This document shows, in pieces, positions 20,321 through 61,422 of a stretch of 64,000 nucleotides of DNA. Where the stretch lies: assembly GCF_000026545.1 (NCBI RefSeq), contig NC_011601.1; one strand, 5' to 3'. The position numbers and the translations under genes were made by a program. Below the pieces are notes generated by a model that saw only the letters and a list, made by a program, of their open reading frames with translations, did no database searches and was not told the origin of the DNA. Positions within the stretch are counted from its first letter, which is position 1; each line of letters starts with the position of its first letter. Source of the DNA: Escherichia coli O127:H6 str. E2348/69. Its GTDB lineage: Bacteria > Pseudomonadota > Gammaproteobacteria > Enterobacterales > Enterobacteriaceae.

Positions 20321-23933
<3,613 letters not shown>

Positions 23934-23939
23934 TGCTTT

Positions 23940-23966
23940 GCGGGCCGACGAGAAATGTCGGCCCGC
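23940..23966. terminator. GC-rich hairpin between convergent ppx and pdeF (weak T-tract)
   Basis: GCGGGCCGAC-7nt-GTCGGCCCGC 10-bp stem followed by ATTATT. Confidence 0.5.
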
Positions 23967-23971
23967 ATTAT

Positions 23972-26215
23972 TCAGGCACTTTCGCGAATGGGTTCGATTT
24001 CATTCAGCGTATCAATTAACGGTTGCGGCTTACCAATAAGATAACCCTGCATATAATCGATCCCCAAAGAGAGCACCGCCTCGCGGATCTCTTCGTTTTC
24101 AACGTACTCCGCCACTACCCGCATTTTCTTCATTCGCGCCAGGTGGCAAATCGACGCCACTATCTGATAATCCAGACTATTTGACACAATATTGCGGATA
24201 AAACTGCCGTCAATTTTAAGCAGATCGGCATTCACATTTTTAAGCCGCGCATAGCTGGCGTAGCCGGTGTCGAAATCATCAATCGCAATCTGGCAGCCTA
24301 ATTCCTGAAGATGCTGCAAGGTGATTTGCGCCTGCTTAACATTGGTCAGAGCATTACTTTCGGTGACTTCAAAAATAAGTTGCCACGCTTCAATCTGATA
24401 TTTAGCCAGCAGCTGACTGACTTCAACAGGAAAACGAGCCTGACATACCGAGGTTGGAGACAGATTAATAGCAAAACGGTGAGCGGGCATCTTCGCTCTG
24501 TTTTCAGCCATAAATTGCAGCGTATGCTCAAGGACCCACATGTCGATACTCGACGATAAACCAAATTCGTGCGCGACCGGTAAGAAGCTATCGGGGCTGA
24601 TCAGCTCATCATTCTCACCCTTCATGCGCAGAAGAATTTCATGGTAAACATCACCACGCATACCGGTAATCGGCTGGGCCATCAGGAAAAAATGGTTGTG
24701 TTCCAGCGCCTGCTGTAGTCGATTCATCATCACGACTTTATCTTTCAATTCGCGTTGCAAATACATTGCTCCGCGACGCTGCATATTTTCCGGGGTGTTG
24801 GTCACGATGGAAAGTTCGGCCACCGTATTTAGCTCTCCCAGCAGCAGGTAGATATGATTCACCGGCGAGCGCACATAGCAGTAACTGACGCCAATCTGCG
24901 GTTGCATCGGCATTCCATCCCAAAAGAAACGAAATTGCTTGAGATGGCTATCCAGTGCGGTAATGCGCTCCTGGTGCGATTCTGTATTCAGCCGCAGCGC
25001 GAGATCGTTACCCGAAAGCTGATAAACATCTTCACCCGGTTCCAGCAAGGGTGACAGCCAGTGAGAAAGTTTTTGCTTATATTGAATCCGCAGCATGATG
25101 CCATAATTCTTAACCAGCATTTCCATGCCAGGGATGCGTAAATAACAAAGCGCAGACCAGGGGGCATCACGTAACGCGCGATTCAGGGCGCGAACATTTG
25201 GCAGATGAACCACCGGGTCCACATACGCAAGCCGCTGAATGCGTCTGACTACCGCTCGCTGACGGGTTGCCAGTACAGCCATATAATTGACAATAAAAGA
25301 GAATACCAGATAACTGGAGGAGGTTATGGTCAGCTGCGTGGTATAGCCAGGATAAATGGGAATGTAATTTTGATAGCTGTGGATGCTGATCATCAACACG
25401 ACCGCCCAGAGCAATGAAATCAGCTTATAACCATAGCGCATCGCTCCCCACATCATCAGGGGCAGCAATAATGACAAGGTGTAATTGGTGCTAAAAATCG
25501 TGCTTTTTTCATTTAACGGCATGCATAACAGCAACAATAAAGCACCTAATGCCAGTAGCCAGATTGCGAACTCTTTTTGGGTAACTTTGGCATCAACCTG
25601 CTGTTTTAATTGCGAATAATAGCTACGTAAATAAAACGGATTTCGCACCACCCGAATGATGAAGTAGCACAGCGGGACACCAATCAGATTACCCACCAGC
25701 AAGGCCTGATAATTGATTAAGGTCCCGAGGTTAAAGGGCATGACGCCGACCAGATTTTCTCTGCTCGCCAGTAATCCAACAAACGCAGCAAACTGGAAAA
25801 GTATCAGAAACAGCGTTGCAGGAAACACAATCTGCCAGAATAGTCGCTGGGAAATTAAACGGCTATCACCATGTGAAACGTTGTTACGCCGGGGAGTAAA
25901 AACCCTGTAACCGCCCCAACAGAGAATGATAATGATAATAAAATTAGCCGTTAATGAGAGCGTTTCGTAAAAACCCAGCTCTGCATATTTGCGGACAAAA
26001 ATCCCTAAGGCGATCCCTGGCAATGCCGCCCAGTTGAAAAACATCATCATGCTGATCATCAGTGCCAGTGGCAGATAAAAGAGAAAAACTTCACCGGAAG
26101 AAATATGAGCGAAAGTATTAATGTGGGCGAAAATGGGCAAGATTAAAGAAGGCAGGAACAGCGGAAGCCCCCACCATTTATCACGTATTTTTATATAAGT
26201 TGCATTCAGTTTCAT
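23972..26215 (-). CDS. pdeF: Membrane-bound cyclic-di-GMP phosphodiesterase PdeF (YfgF): MASE1 + degenerate GGDEF + EAL
   Basis: 747-aa ORF with polytopic N-terminus and a C-terminal EAL domain (EVTE ... DDFDTGYAS ... KIDGSF). Confidence 0.9.
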   Translation of the reverse strand: MKLNATYIKIRDKWWGLPLFLPSLILPIFAHINTFAHISSGEVFLFYLPLALMISMMMFFNWAALPGIALGIFVRKYAELGFYETLSLTANFIIIIILCWGGYRVFTPRRNNVSHGDSRLISQRLFWQIVFPATLFLILFQFAAFVGLLASRENLVGVMPFNLGTLINYQALLVGNLIGVPLCYFIIRVVRNPFYLRSYYSQLKQQVDAKVTQKEFAIWLLALGALLLLLCMPLNEKSTIFSTNYTLSLLLPLMMWGAMRYGYKLISLLWAVVLMISIHSYQNYIPIYPGYTTQLTITSSSYLVFSFIVNYMAVLATRQRAVVRRIQRLAYVDPVVHLPNVRALNRALRDAPWSALCYLRIPGMEMLVKNYGIMLRIQYKQKLSHWLSPLLEPGEDVYQLSGNDLALRLNTESHQERITALDSHLKQFRFFWDGMPMQPQIGVSYCYVRSPVNHIYLLLGELNTVAELSIVTNTPENMQRRGAMYLQRELKDKVVMMNRLQQALEHNHFFLMAQPITGMRGDVYHEILLRMKGENDELISPDSFLPVAHEFGLSSSIDMWVLEHTLQFMAENRAKMPAHRFAINLSPTSVCQARFPVEVSQLLAKYQIEAWQLIFEVTESNALTNVKQAQITLQHLQELGCQIAIDDFDTGYASYARLKNVNADLLKIDGSFIRNIVSNSLDYQIVASICHLARMKKMRVVAEYVENEEIREAVLSLGIDYMQGYLIGKPQPLIDTLNEIEPIRESA

Positions 26216-26566
26216 AGATGCTCAGCAGAATCCCCCACATCCTGAAGGAGGTGTATTCAGACAGGCATCCCACCTGACTTCGAATGATGATTATTCATCA
26301 CTATAGAGAGCAATGATTCTAAGTGTCATATGAAAGTTCCAATTGATATATATCAAACAAAATAACCCTGATTAATGAATTATTACGTTTATCATGTTAA
26401 CTCATCATTATTACATCATCATTGTAAATAATTAAATTAACTTCCATAACATTAAAATATGTATCAACTGACGCTTTTTTACATAACGAAGAATTGACCA
26501 TTTTGTCCTGTTGTGCCTTAATGTAAGTACCGTCCACGGCGTGGGACATACTTCAAGGAACCTTTT

Positions 26567-26758
26567 GTGAGTCAGGCAACCAGTATGCGAAAACGACACC
26601 GATTTAACAGTCGCATGACCCGTATCGTACTGCTCATCAGCTTTATCTTCTTCTTTGGCCGTTTTATCTACTCGTCCGTCGGTGCCTGGCAGCACCATCA
26701 GAGCAAAAAAGAAGCTCAGCAATCCACACTCTCCGTCGAATCACCGGTACAACGTTAG
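26567..26758 (+). CDS. yfgG: Small membrane protein YfgG (63 aa, GTG start)
   Basis: Track ORF with one TM helix (IVLLISFIFFFGRFIY). K-12 position between yfgF and yfgH. Confidence 0.75.
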   Translation: MSQATSMRKRHRFNSRMTRIVLLISFIFFFGRFIYSSVGAWQHHQSKKEAQQSTLSVESPVQR

Positions 26759-27068
26759 CGGTTACCTTCTCCACTCTCACAGAACATAACGGCACCTCGC
26801 TGTCGGATGCTTTTGCTCTTTGAGATTATCAAAGCGGCAGATATTCTTTCATCTTAAATTTTACGTCTTTGTTCTGACTGAAGTTCATCCTGTTCGGCTG
26901 CGAAATAAATACATCATTAATACATATGTTGTGATGATGTATTTTTATAAATTATTTCCCACATGAATTTTAATAAATTTAATCTATTCCTTTATACGCA
27001 ATACATTTACTTTCCTCTTTTGATGATCTTAAATGTCTTATTTTTCGTAATGTGTATAACAAGGAATA

Positions 27069-27587
27069 GTGATGAAATTTAAAAAATGTCTTCTGCCTGT
27101 GGCAATGTTAGCGTCATTCACTCTGGCAGGATGCCAGTCAAATGCTGATGATCATGCCGCCGATGTTTATCAAACCGATCAACTGAATACCAAACAAGAA
27201 ACTAAAACCGTTAATATTATTTCCATTCTTCCCGCAAAAGTTGCCGTAGACAACGCCCAAAATAAACGGAACGCACAAGCCTTCGGCGCGCTTATTGGCG
27301 CTGTCGCTGGCGGTGTTATCGGCCACAACGTCGGGTCTGGCAGCAATTCCGGAACGACAGCAGGTGCAGTTGGCGGCGGAGCTGTTGGCGCAGCAGCGGG
27401 TTCTATGGTGAATGATAAAACCTTAGTGGAAGGTGTTTCTTTAACATATAAGGAAGGCACCAAAGTGTATACCTCCACCCAGGTGGGTAAAGAGTGCCAG
27501 TTTACGACAGGTTTAGCCGTTGTTATTACCACGACGTATAACGAAACGCGTATTCAGCCAAATACCAAATGTCCTGAAAAGAGCTAA
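27069..27587 (+). CDS. yfgH: Outer-membrane glycine-zipper lipoprotein YfgH
   Basis: 172 aa with lipobox LAGC and a Gly-rich GxxxG segment. Confidence 0.85.
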   Translation: MMKFKKCLLPVAMLASFTLAGCQSNADDHAADVYQTDQLNTKQETKTVNIISILPAKVAVDNAQNKRNAQAFGALIGAVAGGVIGHNVGSGSNSGTTAGAVGGGAVGAAAGSMVNDKTLVEGVSLTYKEGTKVYTSTQVGKECQFTTGLAVVITTTYNETRIQPNTKCPEKS

Positions 27588-27602
27588 TAATCAGGAGGAG
27601 TC

Positions 27603-28142
27603 ATGAAGAAAGTTTTTCTTTGCGCCATCTTAGCCTCCTTAAGCTATCCGGCTATCGCCTCATCATTGCAGGATCAACTCTCGGCTGTCGCAGAAGCGGA
27701 ACAGCAAGGTAAAAATGAAGAGCAAAGGCAGCATGACGAATGGGTCGCGGAGCGCAACAGGGAAATCCAGCAAGAGAAGCAACGTCGCGCAAACGCCCAG
27801 GCCGCGGCTAATAAAAGAGCGGCAACGGCAGCAGCGAATAAGAAAGCTCGTCAGGATAAACTGGACGCCGAAGCCACTGCGGACAAAAAACGCGATCAAA
27901 GTTATGAAGATGAGCTACGCAGCTTAGAGATTCAGAAACAAAAACTGGCGCTGGCGAAAGAAGAAGCCCGCGTTAAGCGCGAAAACGAATTTATCGATCA
28001 GGAACTGAAGCACAAAGCTGCGCAAACCGATGTGGTGCAATCTGAAGCTGACGCAAACAGGAATATGACTGAAGGCGGTCGCGATCTGATGAAAAGCGTG
28101 GGCAAAGCAGAAGAGAATAAATCAGATAGCTGGTTTAACTAA
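27603..28142 (+). CDS. yfgI: Periplasmic coiled-coil protein YfgI
   Basis: 179 aa with a signal peptide, highly charged and helical. K-12 synteny. Confidence 0.85.
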   Translation: MKKVFLCAILASLSYPAIASSLQDQLSAVAEAEQQGKNEEQRQHDEWVAERNREIQQEKQRRANAQAAANKRAATAAANKKARQDKLDAEATADKKRDQSYEDELRSLEIQKQKLALAKEEARVKRENEFIDQELKHKAAQTDVVQSEADANRNMTEGGRDLMKSVGKAEENKSDSWFN

Positions 28143-28186
28143 ACGATGTTAGTAACTTCAAGTCTATAATTCTTTAGGATAAAAAA

Positions 28187-28210
28187 CCCTCTGTAGTAAC
28201 AGAGGGTTTT
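28187..28210 (+). terminator. Intrinsic terminator of yfgI
   Basis: CCCTCTG-6nt-CAGAGGG stem followed by TTTT. Confidence 0.8.
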
Positions 28211-28234
28211 GTTCATTCATAGTGCAGGGTCAAA

Positions 28235-28249
28235 TCATTCCCACTCAAT
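28235..28249 (-). other. guaA: Detached 3' terminus of guaA (last 4 codons + stop) = prophage/host junction (att core region)
   Basis: TCATTCCCACTCAAT is the reverse complement of ATTGAGTGGGAATGA (..IEWE*), which I recall as the K-12 guaA C-terminus. Sequence turns AT-rich and phage-like immediately after 28249. Confidence 0.6.
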
Positions 28250-28359
28250 TATTTACTAAACTCATAACTAATTGACTGAAAACAACTTTTAAAACAATGA
28301 AATTTTTCATACCGTTTTATATACCGTCACCGGAAATCAGTACCATGAAAAATGCCATG

Positions 28360-28842
28360 TCACCGGGTCAGCGAATCGTACTGCTTTTCACAGACTCGTC
28401 CGGCTTCTGCGGCCCGGTCAGCGTACTCTGCCAGCTGTCGGTTTCGCTCGAGAGATTTGCTGAGCACGTCGGCAAGCAAAACTCCGGTATCTGCGGCTGA
28501 CGCCCCAGTGCCGACAGTGGAGTTATACTGCCTGAGCTGCTCACGGATGGCAACGAGCTGTTGCTGCAACCTGCCAGCGCGAGCGGCAGCATCAAGAGCA
28601 TCATTGCGCGCCTTGTCGATCCTCTGCTGCGCTTCACGTTCATTGGTAGCTTTCTCCTGTTCATCGTGATTACGGGCTTTATCATCAGCCTGTTTCTGGT
28701 CTTCCTGCGCCTGCGCATACCCGGCATAGTACTGGCGGTCACCGTGGACATTCCAGGCAGCCACGCCGCTGATGACAAGAGCAGCAAGCATCGACACTAT
28801 AAGCAACTGTTTCCAGTACGCTTTGATGAATGCCCAGATCAT
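28360..28842 (-). CDS. i-spanin (Rz-like)
   Basis: 160 aa with an N-terminal TM helix and a charged coiled-coil periplasmic domain. Last gene of the lysis cassette, with an embedded lipoprotein ORF. Confidence 0.85.
28368..28604 (-). CDS. o-spanin (Rz1-like), fully embedded in +1 frame of Rz
   Basis: Internal ATG of track ORF 28368..28787 gives [12 protein letters not shown]|CSNSS.. (lipobox). 78 aa, Pro/Ser-rich mature part. Confidence 0.7.
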   Translation of the reverse strand: MMLLMLPLALAGCSNSSLPSVSSSGSITPLSALGRQPQIPEFCLPTCSANLSSETDSWQSTLTGPQKPDESVKSSTIR

Positions 28843-29465
28843 AACAGTGCCTTACGGGCAGCGGCGTAACGTGCTCGCCGGTCGTCGATACCGTTCTGGC
28901 CACCGTTGATAATCTGCGTGACGCGCACCAGGTCTCCCGTGTACTTCATGCAGCCTTTACTGGCGAAAAACCACGCCGCGCTGCGGGCCGCGTATTCATC
29001 CTGCGACAGCAGTTCAGGCTGAGCGACCAGATCAACCTTCAGACCATTACCGCAATCCCGGTAGTTGTTCAGACCAGTGATCTGGATAAGTCCACGACCG
29101 CGATAATTCCATCCATCACCCGGGCCGTTGTTACCCATGCGCTTGCTGTACACCAGATTGGCGATCGCGCGCTGGCGCTCCAGAGGAAGAGACTTCTCAT
29201 ATGTTTTCCTGCCGAGTGCGTTGGCCTGGTCTGGAGTGATGCGCCCGGCACGGATAAACCCAGACAGCCCGTTAACGCTGTAGTTGAAGTTTTCCTGTAA
29301 CCTGGTAAATCCTCCGGACTCATGCCCGACCTGCGCGATAAACATCGCCTGGTCATCTGGCTTGGTAATGCCAAACTCATTCATAGCAGCAGTGATATGT
29401 TGGTACCAGCGTGCGGCCAGTTGCTCAGTGATACCGGCTGCACGCCGGAACTGGTTAATGTCCAT
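28839..29465 (-). CDS. Endolysin, glycoside hydrolase family 19 (chitinase-like) type
   Basis: 208 aa with [10 protein letters not shown] and [12 protein letters not shown] motifs characteristic of GH19 lysins. ATGA overlap with Rz. Confidence 0.85.
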
Positions 29466-29763
29466 GTTGAGACCTCGATATTTTGAATATCTGCACGACG
29501 TTACCGCGCGTCTTCAGGACGGCGGCAAGCATGACAGCATTGATGATGACCTCTGATAAATCAGCGGCCATTGGTGTGTGATACCAGATTGCATATGCGG
29601 CGCGGACGGGGATGCTGGCTGACGCCACGATAAGGAAGTAGGCTATCCACCCACCCCACCGGCGGTGTTGCGATCCATTACGCCGGAAGGTTCCGACGCG
29701 GATTGCTATCGCAGAACAGATAACCGCATTGGCGACGAGTAAAATCAGCTCATGAGTTGTCAT
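29455..29763 (-). CDS. Holin/antiholin-like membrane protein
   Basis: 102 aa with about 3 TM helices, directly upstream of the endolysin. Confidence 0.6.
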
Positions 29764-30163
29764 CGTCTTTTCTCCCCGGGATTAAATCGCGTGGATTGTC
29801 GGAGCGGTGATAGAGCCAGATACCAATACGTACTGCGACGATTGCCGACACGAACGCGCCAGCAGAGAAGACGATCCCTTTCTCAAAAGAGTCCTGCGTG
29901 ATAGTTGGGATCAGGCTTGCTACGCCGATAAGAATTGAGGCAGTTGGTTTGTAGAATAGAAGCCCGCAGAGGAAGCTGAGCATCGACAGGAGAACCCGGC
30001 GGCGAATTGGATACTCAACGGCCGAGGTAATAAATATTACCGCGCCTGATAAAGCACCAAGCGCCACCTCTGGTGGAACTCCTGCGATCACTGCAGCCAG
30101 AGAACCCATACTAAGCCACTGATTTAAAGACTCACTGGTTAGCTGGGCTGACATGGTGACCAC
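29750..30163 (-). CDS. Holin-like membrane protein
   Basis: 137 aa with about 4 TM helices and a charged C-terminal tail. First gene of the lysis cassette. Confidence 0.6.
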   Translation of the reverse strand: MVTMSAQLTSESLNQWLSMGSLAAVIAGVPPEVALGALSGAVIFITSAVEYPIRRRVLLSMLSFLCGLLFYKPTASILIGVASLIPTITQDSFEKGIVFSAGAFVSAIVAVRIGIWLYHRSDNPRDLIPGRKDDDNS

Positions 30164-35347: not shown

Positions 35348-35364
35348 ATTACCTTACAGGTAAT
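35348..35364. promoter_or_regulatory. Repressor operator, perfect ATTACC-TTACA-GGTAAT
   Basis: Exact match to the 17-bp palindrome that clusters at the cro/cI region. Confidence 0.7.
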
Positions 35365-52297: not shown

Positions 52298-52504
52298 TTA
52301 CTGACCAAGCAGCGTTTTACCGCTGGTGTTTGCGGTTGAAGTGTCACCCTGCGCACCAGTCAGCAGAGTAGAGCTGCGCCCTGCTGCTGCGCGGCGGCGG
52401 CGCTCTTCGTCGTCACGAGAACTGACAACTGCTGCATCCTGCTCCTGTGGCGCAGCCTGTACTTCTGGCGCTGCTGGCACTGATGGCTTGCTGCCGATAC
52501 ACAT
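52298..52504 (-). CDS. 68-aa Pro/Ala/Arg-rich protein preceding portal
   Basis: ATG behind GGAG (8-nt spacing). MCIGSKPSVPAAPEVQAAP... Confidence 0.5.
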   Translation of the reverse strand: MCIGSKPSVPAAPEVQAAPQEQDAAVVSSRDDEERRRRAAAGRSSTLLTGAQGDTSTANTSGKTLLGQ

Positions 52505-52593
52505 AGCAATAGCTCCGTACGCAATTAAATTATTACCAATTTAACCACATATGATTTATTTAGCGTAGGATATTGACACTTATAACATCAGAT

Positions 52594-52610
52594 ATTACCT
52601 TTTAGGTAAT
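52594..52610. promoter_or_regulatory. Repressor operator, perfect ATTACC-TTTTA-GGTAAT, at 5' edge of the RNA island
   Basis: Exact 17-bp operator palindrome. TTGACA at 52573-52578 lies upstream but no good -10 is visible. Confidence 0.7.
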
Positions 52611-52855
52611 TGGTTCGTGTGTTGAATTGATGAATTGCGGAGGTGGTTATGTAACCGCTTGTGCAGTAGCCCGGAGTACCGCAGCAATAAATTGGGCTTA
52701 AAAGTAAAGGCGGTGGATAAGCGGAGCATCATCTCCGCACATAACTAAAAGCGCGCTTCAGTGAATGACCTTTGAGCCTGGTCGTTAAATCCAAACGGTG
52801 GAGTGCGCTTTCAGGTGTGTAGCAGTACGGCATATGGCACATGTGCCGCAGCGGT

Positions 52856-52891
52856 CCGGATGGGTTCCCTTGATGCTACTTCCCCAGCCGG
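52856..52891 (+). repeat. Hairpin 1 presenting loop motif TTCCCTTGATGCT (52865-52877)
   Basis: CCGGATGGG / CCCAGCCGG stem (one mismatch) with an 18-nt loop. Confidence 0.55.
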
Positions 52892-53055
52892 GTAGCCGGA
52901 ATGTGCAAGCCAGTGTTAGGTAAGCACGGACAGACGATTCACCATCGTGGCGATACGGTGTGACACCTCGGAAGAGACGAGGATGCAACGATGATAGCAT
53001 TGGGGTGACCGGTTAATCCCATGACGATAACCGATACAGGCGCAGTGCTCTCTTC

Positions 53056-53169
53056 GTTGTGGTTAGCTCAGATAGGTTAGAGCTCCATCCATGCTTGCCA
53101 TTGCTGCATGGGCGGGGAATGGGTTCCGAAAGGATCGCCGCGCAGGTTCGAATCCTGCACCACAACCCA
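53056..53169 (+). ncRNA. tRNA-like module (114 nt) with encoded CCA; canonical acceptor, D and T arms but no canonical anticodon loop
   Basis: G-1 + TTGTGGT pairs with ACCACAA + C73, then CCA. D arm is GCTC-AGATAGGTTA-GAGC. T arm is GCAGG-TTCGAAT-CCTGC. 57 nt lie between D and T stems, where a class I tRNA has about 23. Confidence 0.6.
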
Positions 53170-53224
53170 ATCACGCCTTAGGACCGTGATGAAGCGCCCA
53201 TAAGAACAATGCTGTGTAGCCTTT

Positions 53225-53259
53225 GGCGGTGGCAGTTTCCCTTGATGCTGACCACCGTC
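53225..53259 (+). repeat. Hairpin 2 presenting loop motif TTCCCTTGATGCT (53237-53249)
   Basis: GGCGGTGG / CCACCGTC stem with a 19-nt loop. Confidence 0.55.
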
Positions 53260-53338
53260 ACTTTTACACCAGAACGCCATTGCGATGACGTTGCGCTGTA
53301 AACCCGTAAGCCATGGAAGGCACCCTTGCTTCCATTTC

Positions 53339-53363
53339 GCCCGGTTCGTCCGGGCATTTTTTT
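53339..53363 (+). terminator. Intrinsic terminator between structured RNA and the 143-aa ORF
   Basis: GCCCGG-TTCGT-CCGGGC followed by A and T7. The RBS of the next ORF starts 1 nt later. Confidence 0.85.
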
Positions 53364-53375
53364 AAGGTGATTAGA

Positions 53376-53807
53376 ATGAGTAAAGACCTGTTCGACATGA
53401 AGCGCCTTCCGGTTGACCGGGTTGCTGCGAGAGTTGTTGGTAAGGGCGTTGATTGGACGCCAAATAAAGTTATTCAAACTGGTGACAGCGATCTTCCGTT
53501 GCCAGTATTTCCTGCATATAACATTAAAAACCCGCAACAACGACGCGAAGTGCAAGCAATGATCGGAAGAAAGAGCGGGAGATTGACAATAATTGGTCTC
53601 GCGGTCACACAGGGAGCAAAAAATAAAGGGGCTCGCTATGTTGCTCGTTGTGTTTGCGGGATTTATACGTATCGCAGAGCAAAAAATTTCAAGAATAATT
53701 CTGATGATTTTGACGGATGCGAGCGCTGCAGAGAACTGTTGTTTCTCAAAAGGGAAGAAGTTAAACGCAGAACGGGAAAATGGGTTGACTGGAAAGAGCT
53801 GATGTAA
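53376..53807 (+). CDS. 143-aa basic zinc-ribbon protein of unknown function
   Basis: ATG 53376 behind AAGGTGA; the track start 53313 lies inside a hairpin. C-terminal GRLTIIG..ARYVARCVCG(23)CERC pattern resembles a widespread uncharacterised phage zinc-ribbon family (recollection). Confidence 0.6.
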   Translation: MSKDLFDMKRLPVDRVAARVVGKGVDWTPNKVIQTGDSDLPLPVFPAYNIKNPQQRREVQAMIGRKSGRLTIIGLAVTQGAKNKGARYVARCVCGIYTYRRAKNFKNNSDDFDGCERCRELLFLKREEVKRRTGKWVDWKELM

Positions 53808-53810
53808 GAC

Positions 53811-53824
53811 TGTGACACGTCACA
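53811..53824. promoter_or_regulatory. Palindrome TGTGACACGTCACA (copy 2 of 3 of GTGACAYGTCAC)
   Basis: Perfect 14-bp palindrome between the 143-aa ORF stop and its terminator. Confidence 0.5.
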
Positions 53825-53827
53825 ACT

Positions 53828-53851
53828 AGCCCGCCGATGCGCGGGCTTTTT
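53828..53851 (+). terminator. Intrinsic terminator of the island (abuts terL stop)
   Basis: AGCCCGC-6nt-GCGGGCT followed by TTTTT on the + strand. No T-tract on the minus strand. Confidence 0.8.
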
Positions 53852-55332
53852 CATGCATAGGGATCGTACTCTGTGAGAGCCTTGCCCTGTTGGCTCTGTT
53901 GCTGCCCATAGTTAAACTGTTTTTTGGTGACCGGCGCGGCATATGTCAGCACGTAGGCGTCGGCATCGTTCGGGGATCTGCCAAGCAACTCTTTGACTTC
54001 TTCCTTGTCCTGCAAAATCTTCCTGCTGTCCTTCAGCCTGACCTTGTACTCCGGCGCACTCAGCTCATCGGCAAGGTTCTGGCTATCCAGTTGCGCCCCA
54101 AGCTTCAGTGCGTCGCGGGCTGATTTGTACATCTCCCCGCGCTTATTGCCCATCTCGGGATCCGCGGTACCGCTTCCGAACTGAATCAGCGTCCAGTTTC
54201 GCCCCCAGTTATCGCCAACTGATTTAAGCCCGGTCCCGTACCCGTAATCGATAAACACAGCATCGGCCTGGTACTGGTCCTCGAAGTCGGCAATTATTTT
54301 GGCAAACAATACGTCGTCAGTGGTGCGTTGCCACTCCCCGAGTTTCTTACAGTGCAGTCCCTGCCGAAGATAGATAACCGCCGGGTCTTTACCCTGGTGA
54401 GACGGGTCGACGCCAAGAACTACAGCAGCGTGCTGAACCTGTGCCGGAGTAATAACCCTGCCAACAGCTGGCTGAGTCAGGCCAGACGGAATGAACTGGT
54501 TTTCAGACGCATCAGGGAAGATCCCGCGCACGCGAACCTTCACGAAGTCGCTGTCTTCGCCGTAGTCGTCCACCCACTTTTGCAGTTGCTGCTTGTTGGT
54601 GCCTTCCACGGTGCGGCTGTCAATCTGCGCGCACTTCCAGCGGTGTTTGTACTTGCGGAAACATTCACGGAAACGCCCGGTGTTACGCGTCGGGTTACCG
54701 AACGCCACCCAGATGATTTCGGTGTCTTCGTCCGTCAGCGCCCCTTCAGCTACCTCCCACACCAGATCGGCAATGTTGGATGCTTCGTCGAATACCACGA
54801 TGATGCGCTTGCGCTCGTTGTGCAGCCCTGCGAACGCCTCGGTGTTGTGTTCAGACCATGGGATTGCGTCAGCGCGCCAGCGTTTATCGTGACCGGGATC
54901 GTTGCTGTACATCGCTGTGGCGGTGCAGGTGAACCACTCTTTCGTAATAGCCAGGTTCGACCATTTGATGATTTCCGGCCATGTCTTGGTACGCAACTGA
55001 TTGTCGGTGTTGGCGGTCACCACCACCTTGCAGTCCTCGCAGGTGGACATGCCCCAGTTAATCAGCATCGAGATGAAAGCAGATTTGCCGATACCATGGC
55101 CGGATGCGCGCGCCAGCATCAAAGGCTGGTGACGCGTCGCTGGGTTCTGGAGGTGATCGCGTATCTCGCGGAAGGCGTCAGCCTGCCACTTTCTGGGACC
55201 TGTGGCGTGCGCCAGCTCTGTGCCATCCTCTCCCCACGGAAACGCGTACAGCGCATAGCCCAGCGGGTCATACGTGAACGAGGCGATATCCTCAACGAGC
55301 TGCTCTTCCGGCGACATGGCTTCGGCTGTCAT
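53851..55332 (-). CDS. Terminase large subunit (493 aa)
   Basis: Walker A-like ARASGHGIGKSAF, Walker B VVFDEAS, and a C-terminal nuclease-like region. Overlaps the terS stop by 4 nt. Confidence 0.88.
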   Translation of the reverse strand: MTAEAMSPEEQLVEDIASFTYDPLGYALYAFPWGEDGTELAHATGPRKWQADAFREIRDHLQNPATRHQPLMLARASGHGIGKSAFISMLINWGMSTCEDCKVVVTANTDNQLRTKTWPEIIKWSNLAITKEWFTCTATAMYSNDPGHDKRWRADAIPWSEHNTEAFAGLHNERKRIIVVFDEASNIADLVWEVAEGALTDEDTEIIWVAFGNPTRNTGRFRECFRKYKHRWKCAQIDSRTVEGTNKQQLQKWVDDYGEDSDFVKVRVRGIFPDASENQFIPSGLTQPAVGRVITPAQVQHAAVVLGVDPSHQGKDPAVIYLRQGLHCKKLGEWQRTTDDVLFAKIIADFEDQYQADAVFIDYGYGTGLKSVGDNWGRNWTLIQFGSGTADPEMGNKRGEMYKSARDALKLGAQLDSQNLADELSAPEYKVRLKDSRKILQDKEEVKELLGRSPNDADAYVLTYAAPVTKKQFNYGQQQSQQGKALTEYDPYA

Positions 55333-58367: not shown

Positions 58368-58431
58368 GATTTACCTCTCAGGTAATTTAAAACCACAAAC
58401 GAGTTAATTTCAATAGCAATGCGCATATTTT

Positions 58432-60825: not shown

Positions 60826-61422
60826 ATGAAAAGTATTTATGACATAAGACGCAAAAACCTTAACGAAATCATTCGCCGGGATTTCGATGACACCCAGTTA
60901 CGCTTTGCAGAACGGGTGAAGCGTTCGCAGAACCTGGTCAACAGGTGGTGTACTGGTATCAAAAATATCGGACCTAATGCCGCGCGTATCATCGAAGAAG
61001 CAGCCCGCAAAGAAAAGTTCTGGCTTGATGTCGATCACGAACTGGACGCAGTACAGGATGATATCTTTATTCCGGCCACTGAAGATGGAGAATGGACTGT
61101 AGAGAAGCAGGCCGCCGCCACGCTCAATGCCTGGATGAGAAAGAACAGTGAAATGACATCCGAAAAGAAAGTTGCTGTTGCAGCTGGCATTGGACCTGCC
61201 ACCGTTAACCGCATCATGAAAGCGGAAGTCAGCACAACCATCGGCGTTCTTTCCTCCCTGGCGCGCGCGTTCGGGCATGAAGCATACGAGATGATTATTC
61301 CCGTCGGCTCACCTGGTGTTATCGACTATGACCACCGGATGTATGCAGCCCTGCCACAGGAAGAGAAAAACAAGATCACCTCATTCATCAACTTCGTGTT
61401 TGAGCAGAACAAAAGCAAGTAA
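60826..61422 (+). CDS. Prophage maintenance repressor (CI-like) with two HTH_3/XRE-type domains and no S24 peptidase domain
   Basis: 198 aa. HTH 1 is TQLRFAERVKRSQNLVNRWCTG. HTH 2 is SEKKVAVAAGIGPATVNRIMKAE. Divergent from cro across the operators. No Ala-Gly/Ser-Lys autocleavage module. Confidence 0.7.
   Translation: MKSIYDIRRKNLNEIIRRDFDDTQLRFAERVKRSQNLVNRWCTGIKNIGPNAARIIEEAARKEKFWLDVDHELDAVQDDIFIPATEDGEWTVEKQAAATLNAWMRKNSEMTSEKKVAVAAGIGPATVNRIMKAEVSTTIGVLSSLARAFGHEAYEMIIPVGSPGVIDYDHRMYAALPQEEKNKITSFINFVFEQNKSK

Follow-up and report, generated by a model that had tools for sequence, protein, structure and literature searches.

In the 64,000-nt stretch of DNA from Escherichia coli O127:H6 str. 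E2348/69 that was analysed (hereafter the window), comparative sequence analysis identified positions 52573-53363 of the plus strand as a predicted non-coding RNA gene whose transcript would measure about 0.66-0.75 kb. Mobile RNA modules make up this RNA as a mosaic; the most conserved of them is a 162-nt core (52824-52985) that represents a previously uncatalogued RNA family. In all lineages having it, the core is placed towards the start of an early transcript under repressor control. We give about equal weight to the following view and to its contrary: the core is a new class of phage RNA, mobile among lambdoid, P1-like and epsilon15-like phages, that acts directly on conserved host machinery, most plausibly on elongating RNA polymerase as a second, structurally unrelated case of protein-free processive antitermination, and otherwise on a host RNA-binding or defence factor.

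The RNA gene lies in a 1.35-kb island on the plus strand between terL (53851-55332, minus strand) and a 68-aa gene (52298-52504, minus strand), and comprises a promoter with operator, about 750 nt of structured RNA including a tRNA-like module, and the terminators T0 and T1. Nearly every sequence feature listed in a preliminary description of this DNA was found where it had been placed. As stated there, 52.6-53.36 kb holds no credible ORF, all ORFs being short and without a Pfam match, and the GC content rises from 0.38 in the AT-rich left flank (52500-52699) to 0.55-0.57 (52700-53300). Moreover, homologous copies carry 1-2-nt indels within the most conserved parts of the RNA region. While the folding z-scores (-3.2 for the plus strand, -3.65 for the minus strand) do not distinguish the strands, the promoter, the terminators, the tRNA orientation and the many G-U pairs assign the RNA to the plus strand, supporting the earlier proposal of a plus-strand structured RNA outside any curated family. 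The idea that the island is a private insertion splitting terL from portal was not sustained, as syntenic islands were recovered in epsilon15-like (Uetakevirus) phages.

The core consists of four helices and two pseudoknots on the plus strand, supported by covariation. Helix P1 (52828-33/52843-48) encloses GCACAU (52837-42), which pairs with AUGUGC (52901-06) as pseudoknot PK1. P2 (52856-59/52887-90) closes a variable hairpin holding the first copy of a 13-nt repeat, and is followed by the invariant 19-mer GGUAGCCGGAAUGUGCAAG (52891-52909) and a variable P3. P4 (52934-38/52944-48) has the loop UCACC, from which CACC (52940-43) pairs with GGUG (52957-60) as PK2, and P5 (52966-70/52978-82) has the loop GAAGAGA. 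Long invariant single-stranded joiners (AGCGGUC, the 19-mer and GGCGAU) connect these elements. The preliminary description had noticed the abundance of stem-loops, which are present, but missed the pseudoknotted core, which is what counts. It had also reported two hairpins displaying the same 13-nt loop; indeed, TTCCCTTGATGCT occurs at 52865-52877 and 53237-53249, each time within a hairpin loop, and no complementary site was found elsewhere in the window.

Homologs were expected to show structure-preserving covariation if the RNA is real, and this was found in the core. In an alignment of 62 distinct sequences, 95.1% of the cells are paired and 13 pairs show both-sided changes. The covariation score is 0.251, compared to 0.115 in shuffles, none of 500 shuffles reached this value, and slid controls of the structure were only 25-47% paired. 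Compensatory changes occur in five helices, one pseudoknot among them, and the covariance model of the core, R1, gives 171.6 bits (E 4e-57). Of 21 loci retrieved via another motif, 20 retain the 19-mer, which is invariant across 10 genera, with a conservation far above that of the flanking coding DNA. Searches with Rfam 15 gave no match in the 64-kb window at gathering score and only terminator look-alikes in 52400-53900 at E<=10, and nothing covered the core in P7, mEp390, Stx2a_WGPS2, PAT1, phiV10 and PM4 at E<=0.1. Thus, in the window and six related loci, no curated family matches the RNA, and no published description of the core sequence was found in a literature search.

The other modules lie on the plus strand as well. 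The 5' leader module A (52611-52738) contains hairpins including AAAAGUAAAGGCGGUGG and GCGGAGCAUCAUCUCCGC; it is present in the window, PAT1, PM4, epsilon15 and the loci L057 and L096, and absent from phiV10 and the SPN1S-type copies. In the window, 16 nt of this module are complementary to 53251-53266, but PM4 does not preserve the match, which was therefore treated as a by-product of shared GGCGGUGG. Module B (52739-52820) is a long hairpin (arms 52739-52760/52799-52820) whose loop carries GUCGUUAAAU (inverted repeat I1); this hairpin precedes the core in phiV10 and PM4, follows it in two copies in mEp390, and is also present in the core-less leader of phage LLS. Downstream of the core, the linker (52986-53055) contains a GCAACGAUGAUAGCAUU hairpin, another hairpin and AGUGCUCUCUUC, the boxA-like 5' flank of the tRNA-like module. 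A CAAC..AGAGCAYU element follows the core in about 25 of the 62 representatives, and CAGTGCTCTTTCCGTTGTG recurs at 19 loci on the plus strand versus one on the minus strand.

The tRNA-like module ending in CCA, recognized in the preliminary description, was located at 53057-53169. Its minimum-free-energy fold is a cloverleaf with intact acceptor, D and T arms, the T loop UUCGAAU and an encoded CCA (53167-53169). The likeness to a tRNA stops there: the anticodon stem has 6 bp, the anticodon loop is expanded to 11 nt instead of the normal 7, the extra arm is long, ARAGORN made no call, and a tRNA match is absent from the Rfam list at E<=10. PGAP annotates the module as a pseudogenic tRNA-Gly. 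Its T arm covaries with PM4 (GCAGG/CCUGC versus GCCGG/CCGGC), and phiV10-type phages carry a normal tRNA-Arg(UCU) in the same slot. Just 3' of the slot, a predicted hairpin, UCACG-CCUUAGGAC-CGUGA (53171-53194), is conserved in the window, PAT1, PM4 and phiV10.

At the 3' end, both terminators described earlier were recovered by a terminator scan, T1 at 53339-53363 (GCCCGG-UUCGU-CCGGGC-A-U7) and T2 at 53828-53851, but a conserved extra terminator-like hairpin, T0 (53225-53265), had been overlooked. In T0, GGCGGUGG (53225-32) pairs with CCACCGUC (53252-59), followed by AC-UUUU-ACA, and the loop carries the second 13-nt repeat. Of 137 loci, 83, both lambdoid and epsilon15-like, have a perfect 8-bp T0 with U4-7-NACA on the downstream side of the core, and the T0 stem covaries (GGCGGUGA/UCACCGCC, GGCGGUCG/CGACCGCC, GGCGGUAC/GUACCGC). 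The distance from core to T0 is about 200 to 550 nt, and the interval holds unrelated modules, tRNA genes included. Between T0 and T1 lies a 3' domain (53266-53338; ACGCCAUUGCGAUGAC, GCUGUAAACC and a GGAAGGCA..UUGCUUCC hairpin), which is nearly invariant in 23 distinct epsilon15-like islands and still kept by epsilon15, which has no core. The T1 stem also covaries (GCCCGG/CCGGGC versus GCCCAC/GUGGGC), and T2, conserved in sister phages, closes the unit against the 3' end of terL.

Transcription of the RNA is predicted to start near 52609 from an early promoter (52573-52610) with a -35 element TTGACA (52573-52578), a 17-bp spacer and a -10 element TACCTT (52596-52601), which a simple promoter scan missed because the -10 fits at only 3 of 6 positions. 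The perfect repressor operator ATTACCTTTTAGGTAAT reported at 52594-52610 was verified and overlaps this promoter; five epsilon15-like phages all share TTGACA and the ATTACC half-site without change. Including this operator, the window has 7 perfect ATTACC-N5-GGTAAT sites, whereas 1.7 matches are expected by chance even with up to 2 mismatches allowed. The other sites are clustered beside an HTH repressor gene (60826-61422), and the homologous operator site is annotated as repressor-binding in the epsilon15 record. Both the operator counts and the repressor gene support the repressor-operator control suggested earlier and indicate, at the sequence level, that the promoter of the RNA gene is occluded by the prophage's own repressor. 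The RNA should therefore be silent in the lysogen and switched on at induction or infection.

Behind T1, a ribosome-binding site AAGGTGA (53364-53370) and, 12 nt after the terminator as noted before, an ATG at 53376 open a 143-aa ORF on the plus strand (53376-53807; WP_000031196.1). In the window there is, as had been argued, no room for a promoter of its own, so the ORF must depend on T1 read-through. It encodes a small, basic zinc-ribbon protein whose Cys92, Cys94, Cys115 and Cys118 are at least nearly invariant in the alignment. The protein belongs to PHROG 18493 (function unknown; 22 homolog clusters), had no match in Pfam, NCBIfam or PADLOC, and its AlphaFold2 model (pLDDT 76) had no fold match in the PDB. 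Its ORF is found behind the RNA in two groups only, the window's own cluster and the PAT1-like phages, and the T1-AAGGTGA-ATG junction is common to at least 8 unrelated ORFs in sister phages; in some epsilon15-like sisters a separate operator-controlled promoter after T1 serves the cargo. Other prophages have homologs of the protein within their early-left operons but no core, and more than 100 loci have the core but not the protein. These data indicate that the ORF is independent, exchangeable cargo behind a conserved T1-RBS junction. The preliminary description had treated RNA and protein as one system, to which the swappable slot and their separate occurrence run counter; of the two signs it named against such a system, the ORF does occur without the upstream RNA, while a promoter of its own was not seen in the window.

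The core family is limited to Enterobacterales, where 10 enterobacterial genera have it. It was found in at least 120 IMG/VR contigs, and of 5426 complete E. coli genomes 2152 (about 40%) carry it. It is always within repressor-controlled early operons: in lambdoid phages it directly follows PL, in the C1-controlled ban operon of P1/P7 it follows tRNA-Ile, and in epsilon15-like islands it follows the operator. In mEp390, a PL promoter (TTGACA-18-TACATT) follows the cI terminator, and xis and int lie at the far end of the operon. In the Stx2a phage, one sequence is read as PL and the inverted repeats flanking it are candidate operators, and in the P7 record Op(ban) is annotated. UTI89, THO-015 and a Stenotrophomonas phage share the early layout; in UTI89, T0 and a long T1-like hairpin stand about 50 nt before yfdP, leaving no room for a promoter. 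Among 62 representative loci, neither a lambda-N homolog nor an arginine-rich-motif protein is encoded within 3.5 kb downstream. The first genes downstream are PHROG unknowns, ParB-like or YfdP/Q/R and have no common metabolic theme. The three core-bearing phage lineages have no protein in common, pointing to a conserved host partner, and the confinement to Enterobacterales is what an RNA adapted to a single type of RNA polymerase would be expected to show. Two relatives retain the layout without the core, epsilon15 with T0, T1, a ribosome-binding site and an ORF, and the N-less phage LLS with T0/T1-yfdP. Therefore, the core is dispensable or replaceable by another module.

Our best guess on function, offered tentatively, is that the core is a put-like, polymerase-modifying antiterminator. 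The nascent core would fold and bind the transcribing host RNA polymerase as the put RNA of phage HK022 does, and the modified polymerase would resist T0 and T1, as well as Rho on the long untranslated leader, and read on, in the window into the cargo ORF and in lambdoid phages through the whole early-left operon with xis and int. A role as a signal for RNase P-type processing and stability may fall to the tRNA or tRNA-like module, and an intact tRNA in the slot would additionally supply tRNA-Arg. Such a role would fit the early repressor-controlled position, the terminators between RNA and genes, the lack of an N-type antiterminator, and the placement of xis and int at the far end of the mEp390 operon. 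The put RNA lies just downstream of PL, works without phage proteins and is restricted in host range (PMC9378689), and for N-less lambdoid phages Casjens and colleagues suggest a "maybe put-like" mechanism (PMC12315714). Several observations speak against it. Each genome has a single core copy and none behind PR, whereas HK022 has both putL and putR; the core is missing in epsilon15 and LLS despite the kept T0/T1 layout; in P1/P7 it lies 2.4 kb from the promoter, with no obvious terminator seen before ban; and where the cargo has its own promoter after T1, as in some epsilon15-like phages, the RNA unit is retained although only T2 would be left for it to antiterminate. In addition, the flanking tRNAs and the conserved hairpin/U-tract 3' end look like those of a released stable RNA, and the core does not resemble put in sequence or size.

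Nearly as likely, though still doubtful on balance, is a trans-acting early RNA. Transcription would stop at T0/T1, RNase P-type processing would cut the transcript back at the tRNA or tRNA-like module, and the core would be set free together with its partner modules (about 200-650 nt). It would bind a conserved host component such as an RNA-binding protein, a nuclease or a defence sensor, acting as a sponge, decoy or inhibitor during the opening minutes of the lytic cycle; as a decoy, the tRNA-like piece might occupy anticodon nucleases, and the cargo ORF would be made only via leaky read-through. The conservation of the T0 hairpin and U-tract in 83 of 137 loci and the strength of T1 are consistent with this reading, and so are the tRNAs directly flanking the core in P1/P7 and epsilon15-like phages and the tRNA-like module that keeps its covarying T arm and its acceptor arm but not a normal anticodon loop. 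The RNA is kept even in units whose cargo has its own promoter, its accessory nature (absent in epsilon15 and LLS) matches counter-defence cargo moving among early operons, and GOLLD and ROOL provide a precedent for large phage-borne RNAs beside tRNAs (PMC12286853). However, in lambdoid phages the RNA stands between PL and the entire early-left operon with no promoter after the terminators, and termination there therefore cannot be the normal outcome. Nor does the loop repeat have a complementary site elsewhere in the window, and the RNA has no Rfam likeness to known sponge or decoy RNAs.

It is improbable that the core is a ligand-sensing aptamer coupling early read-through to a host metabolite or signal, or a self-cleaving ribozyme processing the RNA-tRNA transcript. 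A multi-helix junction, two pseudoknots and long invariant single-stranded joiners are typical of such RNAs, terminators lie downstream of the core, and small self-cleaving ribozymes are common in phage and prophage neighbourhoods (PMC3088659), but no Rfam riboswitch or ribozyme matched at E<=10, an alternative core-T0 pairing is not conserved, and the downstream genes lack a metabolic theme. Furthermore, the distance from core to T0 varies with unrelated filler, making a shared aptamer/terminator switch helix unlikely.

We attach a similarly small probability to an antisense or convergent regulator of the late operon that, expressed early, would hold back late mRNA or cause its processing, with RNase III as one possible agent. 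In epsilon15-like phages the plus-strand RNA could pair over its full length with the intercistronic part of the late transcript between terL and portal, the gene layout in the window fits, an RNase III site is annotated in the epsilon15 record for the homologous stretch, on the other strand, and T0, T1 and T2 halt plus-strand transcription before terL. Yet in the lambdoid early-left and P1 ban operons the core is co-directional and faces no convergent late transcript, and a conserved tertiary fold is unneeded for such action, although the fold covaries. An antisense effect is thus at best secondary and lineage-specific.

Far less probable is a two-component system of RNA and 143-aa protein with a type III toxin-antitoxin or retron layout, in which the protein is made by read-through: the order RNA-terminator-RBS-ORF is real, the ORF lacks its own promoter and a basic zinc-ribbon protein could bind nucleic acid, but RNA and protein are not co-inherited (more than 100 core loci without the protein, and homologs without the core), at least 8 unrelated ORFs fill the same slot, and neither tandem repeats nor a reverse-transcriptase gene nor a match to ToxN, Abi or a defence family was found. 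Finally, we practically dismiss the notion that the stretch is non-functional as RNA, that is, a decayed protein gene (which the preliminary description had named among its refutations), spacer, or a DNA-level recombination or packaging site, given the compensatory changes in five helices including a pseudoknot, the strand-specific G-U pairs, the 1-nt indels in conserved blocks, the ORFs without Pfam match and the 19-mer invariant across 10 genera far above flanking coding DNA, even though the epsilon15 core was deleted by recombination between the two 13-nt repeats and modules are shuffled among phages.

These results would give E. coli and its phages, the most studied set of bacterium and phages, a well-supported structured RNA that is very common; an annotation gap of this kind was unexpected there, the core being unannotated in about 40% of the complete E. 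coli genomes. They offer a candidate answer to how N-less lambdoid phages pass the terminators before the early-left operon with xis and int. Should the core act on RNA polymerase, it would join put as a second natural antiterminator RNA, whereas a core acting in trans would be a new early-expressed phage RNA effector travelling with tRNAs. Natural core-less controls exist in epsilon15 versus SPN1S and PAT1 and in LLS versus its relatives. Annotators should be aware that the PGAP "pseudogenic tRNA-Gly" and the hypothetical ORFs here are by-products of the RNA gene.

Among known systems, type III toxin-antitoxin modules (ToxI-ToxN) share the order of promoter, structured RNA, terminator and protein gene. 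Type III antitoxin RNAs consist of tandem repeats of about 34-36 nt, and Tandem Repeats Finder reported nothing in 52505-53400. A recognisable ToxN/AbiQ-type endoribonuclease was rejected, as the cargo protein has no Pfam match and is not co-inherited with the RNA, and so was a retron, as the sole island ORF has no Pfam match, the neighbours are terL, gp3 and portal, and no reverse-transcriptase gene is present. The type III or retron-like module considered in the preliminary description thus found no backing in repeats, in Pfam, NCBIfam or PADLOC matches, or in a reverse transcriptase. The P1/P7 C4 and P4 CI immunity RNAs are excised from longer transcripts by RNase P-type processing. These are antisense RNAs of about 80 nt with an immunity role, whereas the RNA described here would be made only upon derepression, and the Rfam C4 model had no match over it. 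A C4 family RNA was observed in one related locus, away from the core.

The core resembles lambda nutL/N in its position in the PL leader, and its P5 loop GAAGAGA recalls the GAAGA loop of lambda nutL boxB. A boxA-like UGCUCU(C)UU stands beside the tRNA-like module; the only boxA-like sequence present, UGCUCUCUU, is imperfect. The core has no boxA-spacer-boxB arrangement, is far larger than a nut site, and has no N-like or arginine-rich-motif protein downstream in the 62 loci. GOLLD and ROOL are likewise large (>0.5 kb), highly structured non-coding phage or prophage RNAs that often adjoin or enclose tRNA genes (PMC12286853). Our RNA is about 750 nt in the window and 0.45-1.05 kb in sister phages, with a tRNA-Arg or tRNA-like module inside and tRNA-Ile beside the P1/P7 core, an association that amounts to resemblance only. 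The GOLLD and ROOL Rfam models did not match it at E<=10; they occur in Firmicutes and in rumen and lake metagenomes rather than Enterobacterales, and each is one large conserved fold rather than exchangeable modules around a 162-nt core.

HK022 put suppresses termination through binding the zinc-binding domain of the RNA polymerase beta' subunit. It has about 70 nt in two stem-loops, compared to 162 nt, four helices and two pseudoknots in the core, and is present in two copies per genome rather than one. Model R1 had no match in HK022 22,000-30,000, a stretch presumed to include putL, and the core, unlike put, has tRNAs associated with it and extends to P1-like and epsilon15-like phages. Nevertheless, putL/putR and the core are alike as cis structured RNAs just downstream of a repressor-controlled early promoter in an N-less phage, with terminators and early genes further downstream, and the core thus occupies the put-type location after that promoter and before the terminators.

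The window is a prophage in enteropathogenic E. coli E2348/69 that is epsilon15-like (Uetakevirus-type); in it, terS, terL (53851-55332), a 68-aa gene (52298-52504) and portal run leftward, and the 1.35 kb separating terL from the 68-aa gene are organised on the + strand. This island (52505-53850) is 100% identical to NZ_CP059840.2 1343236-1344581, and its RefSeq annotation consists solely of a "pseudogenic tRNA-Gly" (53057-53169) and a hypothetical protein (53376-53807). The preliminary description, which took the island for an accessory system made of a structured RNA and the 143-aa protein behind it, is borne out in its basic observations. The region 52.6-53.36 kb holds short ORFs only, none with a Pfam match, the GC content rises from 0.38 to ~0.56, and the 13-nt repeat (52865-52877 and 53237-53249), both terminators (T1, 53339-53363; T2, 53828-53851) and the RBS/ATG lie at the positions described. 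The finding is real, more general than was thought and differently composed: the object of interest is the RNA alone, and the most conserved part of the island is a 162-nt core (52824-52985) that had been overlooked. Antisense to the RNA run ORFs at 52785-53000 (-), 53077-53280 (-) and 53178-53555 (-), as does PhiV10p04 (locus L129), and at least this last one has been deposited as a hypothetical protein; their relatives cluster among the ORF calls (clusters c1, c9 and c11). These ORFs are conserved solely through the conservation of the RNA itself, and they are likely annotation artefacts.

The core structure was derived from an alignment of 62 distinct sequences. Helix P1 (CGGCAU/GUGCCG) is accompanied by P2, which closes a variable hairpin, P4 (ACGAU/AUCGU, loop UCACC) and P5 (CCUCG/CGAGG, loop GAAGAGA). 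In pseudoknot PK2 the P4 loop pairs with a downstream GGUG, and a C-G pair switches as a pair to A-U in Stx-type copies. Pseudoknot PK1, between GCACAU in the P1 loop and AUGUGC within an invariant 19-mer, does not vary, so covariation speaks neither for nor against it. For this structure, 95.1% of cells in the 62 sequences are paired, compared to 87.1% in shuffled alignments, none of 500 shuffles reaching the observed value; both sides have changed at 13 pairs (141 cells), and the covariation score is 0.251 versus 0.115 in shuffles. When the partners were slid by 1-3 columns as a control, pairing fell to 25-47%. Furthermore, G-U pairs are frequent (60 of the 62 sequences at one P1 position) and would be A-C mismatches on the opposite strand, indicating that the RNA is the + strand; thermodynamic z-scores and folding energies did not discriminate between strands. 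At gathering or permissive thresholds, the core has no Rfam 15 match, either in the window itself or in six related loci; matches away from it were terminator look-alikes, tRNAs and unrelated C4, isrK and STnc100. The 19-mer, as DNA or RNA, has no match in the searchable literature, and an earlier description may exist elsewhere. The core is a new family, in sequence and in structure.

Pieces of the core were found by blastn in epsilon15-like phages, in the lambdoid phages mEp390, mEp460, Stx2- and Stx2c-converting phages and 2H10, in P1, P7, D6 and SJ46, and in phages of Klebsiella, Enterobacter and Stenotrophomonas, and the exact 19-mer (GGTAGCCGGAATGTGCAAG) is present in at least 120 IMG/VR contigs. 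A further scan of one genome per species, with another part of the core (the P1 hairpin) as the query, gave 21 loci, in Kosakonia, Phytobacter, Citrobacter, Klebsiella, Kluyvera, Enterobacter, Erwinia, Pseudescherichia, Escherichia and Superficieibacter, 20 of which carry the identical 19-mer. Among 5426 complete E. coli genomes, 2152 have a core match, covering at least 80% of the core length in 835 of them, with up to four copies per genome; 533 places are on plasmids, presumably P1-like phage-plasmids. None of the E. coli copies listed is annotated over the core, and the e14 prophage of E. coli K-12 lacks it.

The contexts of the core follow a common pattern. In the window, a perfect and invariant -35 box (TTGACA, 52573-78) is followed by a 17-bp spacer and a -10 box (TACCTT) overlapped by the palindrome at 52594-52610. 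The suggestion that this palindrome is a repressor operator proved correct: ATTACC-N5-GGTAAT occurs in seven perfect copies in the window versus 1.7 expected (<=2 mismatches), and the remaining copies cluster on either side of an HTH repressor gene (60826-61422). Judged from this overlap, the unit should be repressed in the lysogen and expressed upon derepression. In epsilon15-like phages, the core follows the ATTACC-N5-GGTAAT operator. Of the 122 core loci, ~37 are epsilon15-like, ~68 lambdoid and ~17 P1-like. The lambdoid order (mEp390, Stx2a_WGPS2, UTI89, THO-015 and the Stenotrophomonas phage BUCT708) starts with cII and cro (leftward), followed by cI (rightward) with its terminator; PL comes next, and behind it the core, a long non-coding leader and the early-left genes. 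PL of mEp390 is TTGACA-18-TACATT, and its early-left operon extends to xis and int; in the Stx2a phage, inverted repeats that are putative operators flank the sequence taken for PL. In P7, the core is directly 3' of tRNA-Ile, ~70 nt before ban, in an operon annotated in the record as being under the C1 operator Op(ban). These contexts indicate that the RNA belongs to a repressor-silenced transcript in all three lineages, which have no common protein able to partner it.

Several observations were made beside these. The operator palindrome is perfect at 35348, 55942, 58432, 61480, 61542 and 61618 and has one mismatch at 58370, 60739 and 60756. A pair of sites separates the HTH repressor gene from a divergent 77-aa ORF, a triplet lies directly downstream of the repressor gene and another copy within the terS start; together with that at 35348, the scattered sites seem to outline the repressor regulon. 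Between the -35 box and the 68-aa gene, an AT-rich stretch of 68 bp (52505-52572) is almost invariant in five epsilon15-like phages and holds an extra ATTACC half-site. It might serve the island promoter as an UP element or IHF site, or else the leftward gp3-portal genes as their leader or promoter; an IHF site is annotated nearby in the epsilon15 record. In the locus of Stx2a_WGPS2 (L005), 131-332 on the minus strand matches the Rfam C4 antisense RNA (83.6 bits) and isrK (67 bits), together with a sub-threshold match to the c4-a1b1 target model (25.6 bits, gathering threshold 46.7), within or adjoining a gene annotated as antirepressor ~2 kb from the core, which points to an immI module of the P1 type in this lambdoid Stx phage. 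The P7 locus (L003) has a tRNA-Sec-like Rfam match in the ban operon at 1276-1360 (46.6 bits, cut-off 47), called tRNA-Ser(UGA) by ARAGORN, and a sub-threshold STnc100-like match upstream of terB at 1473-1588, both absent from the annotation of the record.

Outside the core, the island RNA is put together, mosaic-fashion, from modules that recur elsewhere. Module B, a long hairpin with the loop GUCGUUAAAU, precedes the core in the window, follows it twice in mEp390 and also occurs in phage LLS, which lacks the core; a circular permutation in mEp390 was ruled out, that phage simply having two copies. The slot behind the core holds a normal tRNA-Arg(UCU) in phiV10-type phages and a tRNA-like element in the window and in the epsilon15-like PM4. 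The reported tRNA-like module ending in CCA is present: it has kept its acceptor, D and T arms and its CCA, and comparison of the window with PM4 shows covariation in the T-arm, but no tRNA finder that was run accepted the element, which has an 11-nt anticodon loop and a long extra arm. This pattern would fit selection for processing or recognition over decoding. Directly 5' of the acceptor stem of the tRNA or tRNA-like element is a boxA-like string (AGUGCUCUCUUC at 53044-53056; CAGUGCUCUUUCCGUUGUG elsewhere), found on the RNA strand only in ~15 of 62 representative loci; it could recruit NusB/NusE, shielding the long untranslated transcript from Rho, or merely pair with its 3' flank. A true boxA/nut after the core in three loci (L028, L041 and L084) was set aside, the hairpin there being the terminator of an inserted opposite-strand gene and the evidence weak. 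Further downstream, the terminator-like hairpin T0 is formed in the window by GGCGGUGG (53225-32) and CCACCGUC (53252-59), followed by UUUU, and its loop holds copy 2 of the 13-nt repeat, for which no targets beyond chance were found within the window. As a perfect 8-bp stem with U4-7-NACA, T0 lies downstream of the core in 83 of 137 loci, lambdoid and epsilon15-like, and its stem covaries. An alternative long-range closing helix (52699-52714/53251-53266) was rejected, as it is the local T0 that covaries and PM4 keeps module A without the complementarity. A conserved 3' domain and the strong T1 come after T0.

Two phages provide natural variants of this arrangement. In epsilon15 (L002, AY150271.2, 2501-2990), a deletion extends from one copy of the 13-nt repeat (TTCCCTTGATGCT) to the other, the phage having recombined between them. 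It lost the core and the tRNA slot and retained the promoter, modules A and B, T0, the 3' domain, T1 and an ORF, and is thus a natural core-less control. In LLS (L162, PQ299149, 11731-12360, minus strand), the 630-nt PL leader of an N-less lambdoid phage has module B, T0, the long T1-like hairpin and the repressor-gap-yfdPQR layout in common with core-bearing leaders, and an unrelated hairpin pair ending in CUUUUU occupies the position of the core. Early leaders are mosaics, the core being one of several possible modules.

Together, these results show a gene for an early RNA under repressor control. The conserved, pseudoknotted core forms its 5' part; a tRNA slot and tandem terminators come behind it, and then promoterless genes. 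What the core does, put-like or otherwise, we infer from genomic context. The reading to which we tentatively give most weight, at less than even chances, is that the core would act as a put-like antitermination RNA in cis, with host polymerase as its partner. The case comes mainly from lambdoid phages, where transcription must pass T0 and a long T1-like hairpin to reach any gene of the early-left operon, with only ~50 nt from that hairpin to yfdP in UTI89. None of 62 representative loci has a lambda-N homolog or arginine-rich-motif protein within 3.5 kb, and the first downstream genes are unknowns, ParB-like or YfdP/Q/R. The same logic led to the put RNA of HK022, which lies just downstream of PL and requires no phage protein (PMC9378689), and for the N-less LLS the authors of a recent lambdoid survey could go no further than suggesting that the mechanism is put-like (PMC12315714). 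With host polymerase as the partner, the spread over unrelated phages and the confinement to Enterobacterales would be explained as well. However, there is a single core copy per genome, with no second, putR-like copy in the window or mEp390; the core is dispensable, being missing in epsilon15 and replaced by another module in LLS; in phage P1 it is distant from the promoter; and the cargo of some islands has its own promoter. Moreover, the flanking tRNAs and the conserved hairpin-U-tract end resemble a released stable RNA. It is possible, if somewhat less probable than antitermination, that the core is instead a trans-acting early RNA, a sponge or decoy perhaps concerned with tRNA-related counter-defence. 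A riboswitch or ribozyme is unlikely, and we give equally little credence to antisense control of the late operon, which would concern the epsilon15 lineage only.

The proposal that RNA and 143-aa protein form one system, of the type III toxin-antitoxin or retron kind, fares far worse. The junction GGGCAUUUUUUU-AAGGTGA-N4-7-ATG is conserved in 30 epsilon15-like islands, and the ORF behind it belongs to any of at least eight unrelated families; some islands have no ORF of >=60 aa before terL. In others (L006, L030, L080, L110 and more), a second operator copy, ATTACCTTAAAGGTAT with TATAAT, overlaps the cargo's own promoter just after T1, the cargo being a ~200-300-aa membrane and coiled-coil protein, so that RNA and cargo are two separately repressed units. 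Only in PAT1-like phages and the window's own cluster does the 143-aa ORF come after the core. Its product has 22 homolog clusters, including genes of Salmonella and Enterobacter prophages that are packed into early-left operons, between repressor and integrase, with no core in these 8-kb loci. Four cysteines are at least nearly invariant, a pattern that fits a zinc ribbon. The protein is PHROG 18493, a function-unknown family, and weakly matches a segment of an HNH-endonuclease PHROG; it has no match in Pfam, NCBIfam or PADLOC, none to a defence family, and its AlphaFold2 model (pLDDT 76) no significant PDB fold match. The island RNA has no tandem repeats. With exchangeable cargo, core-less homologs, no family matches and no tandem repeats, the toxin-antitoxin, retron and RNA-protein readings are unsupported; the 143-aa protein is cargo, and a joint system is very improbable. 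That the core is not a functional RNA is scarcely credible.

Previously described RNAs were also considered. In E2348/69, the Pas sRNAs are encoded in lambdoid prophages, close to Q/lysis genes or inside structural-gene operons, and the window lacks the Rfam families IsrG and IS009 that reportedly flank PasB. EHEC anti-sRNAs are located in the PR' moron site, and different elements are the subject of the Minerva preprint, a 50-genome ncRNA survey and the mEp021 papers. The island RNA is of the broader kind of phage early-leader or ornate RNAs, and its core is neither a nut site, a ToxI array, a retron RNA nor a C4/CI immunity RNA. GOLLD and ROOL possibly work in a similar way, but their models give no match and their architecture differs, so that the core is not a member of either. 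Although it is not a member of put either, with a different architecture and no match to the put model, put is the known RNA whose working mode would be most like that of the core.
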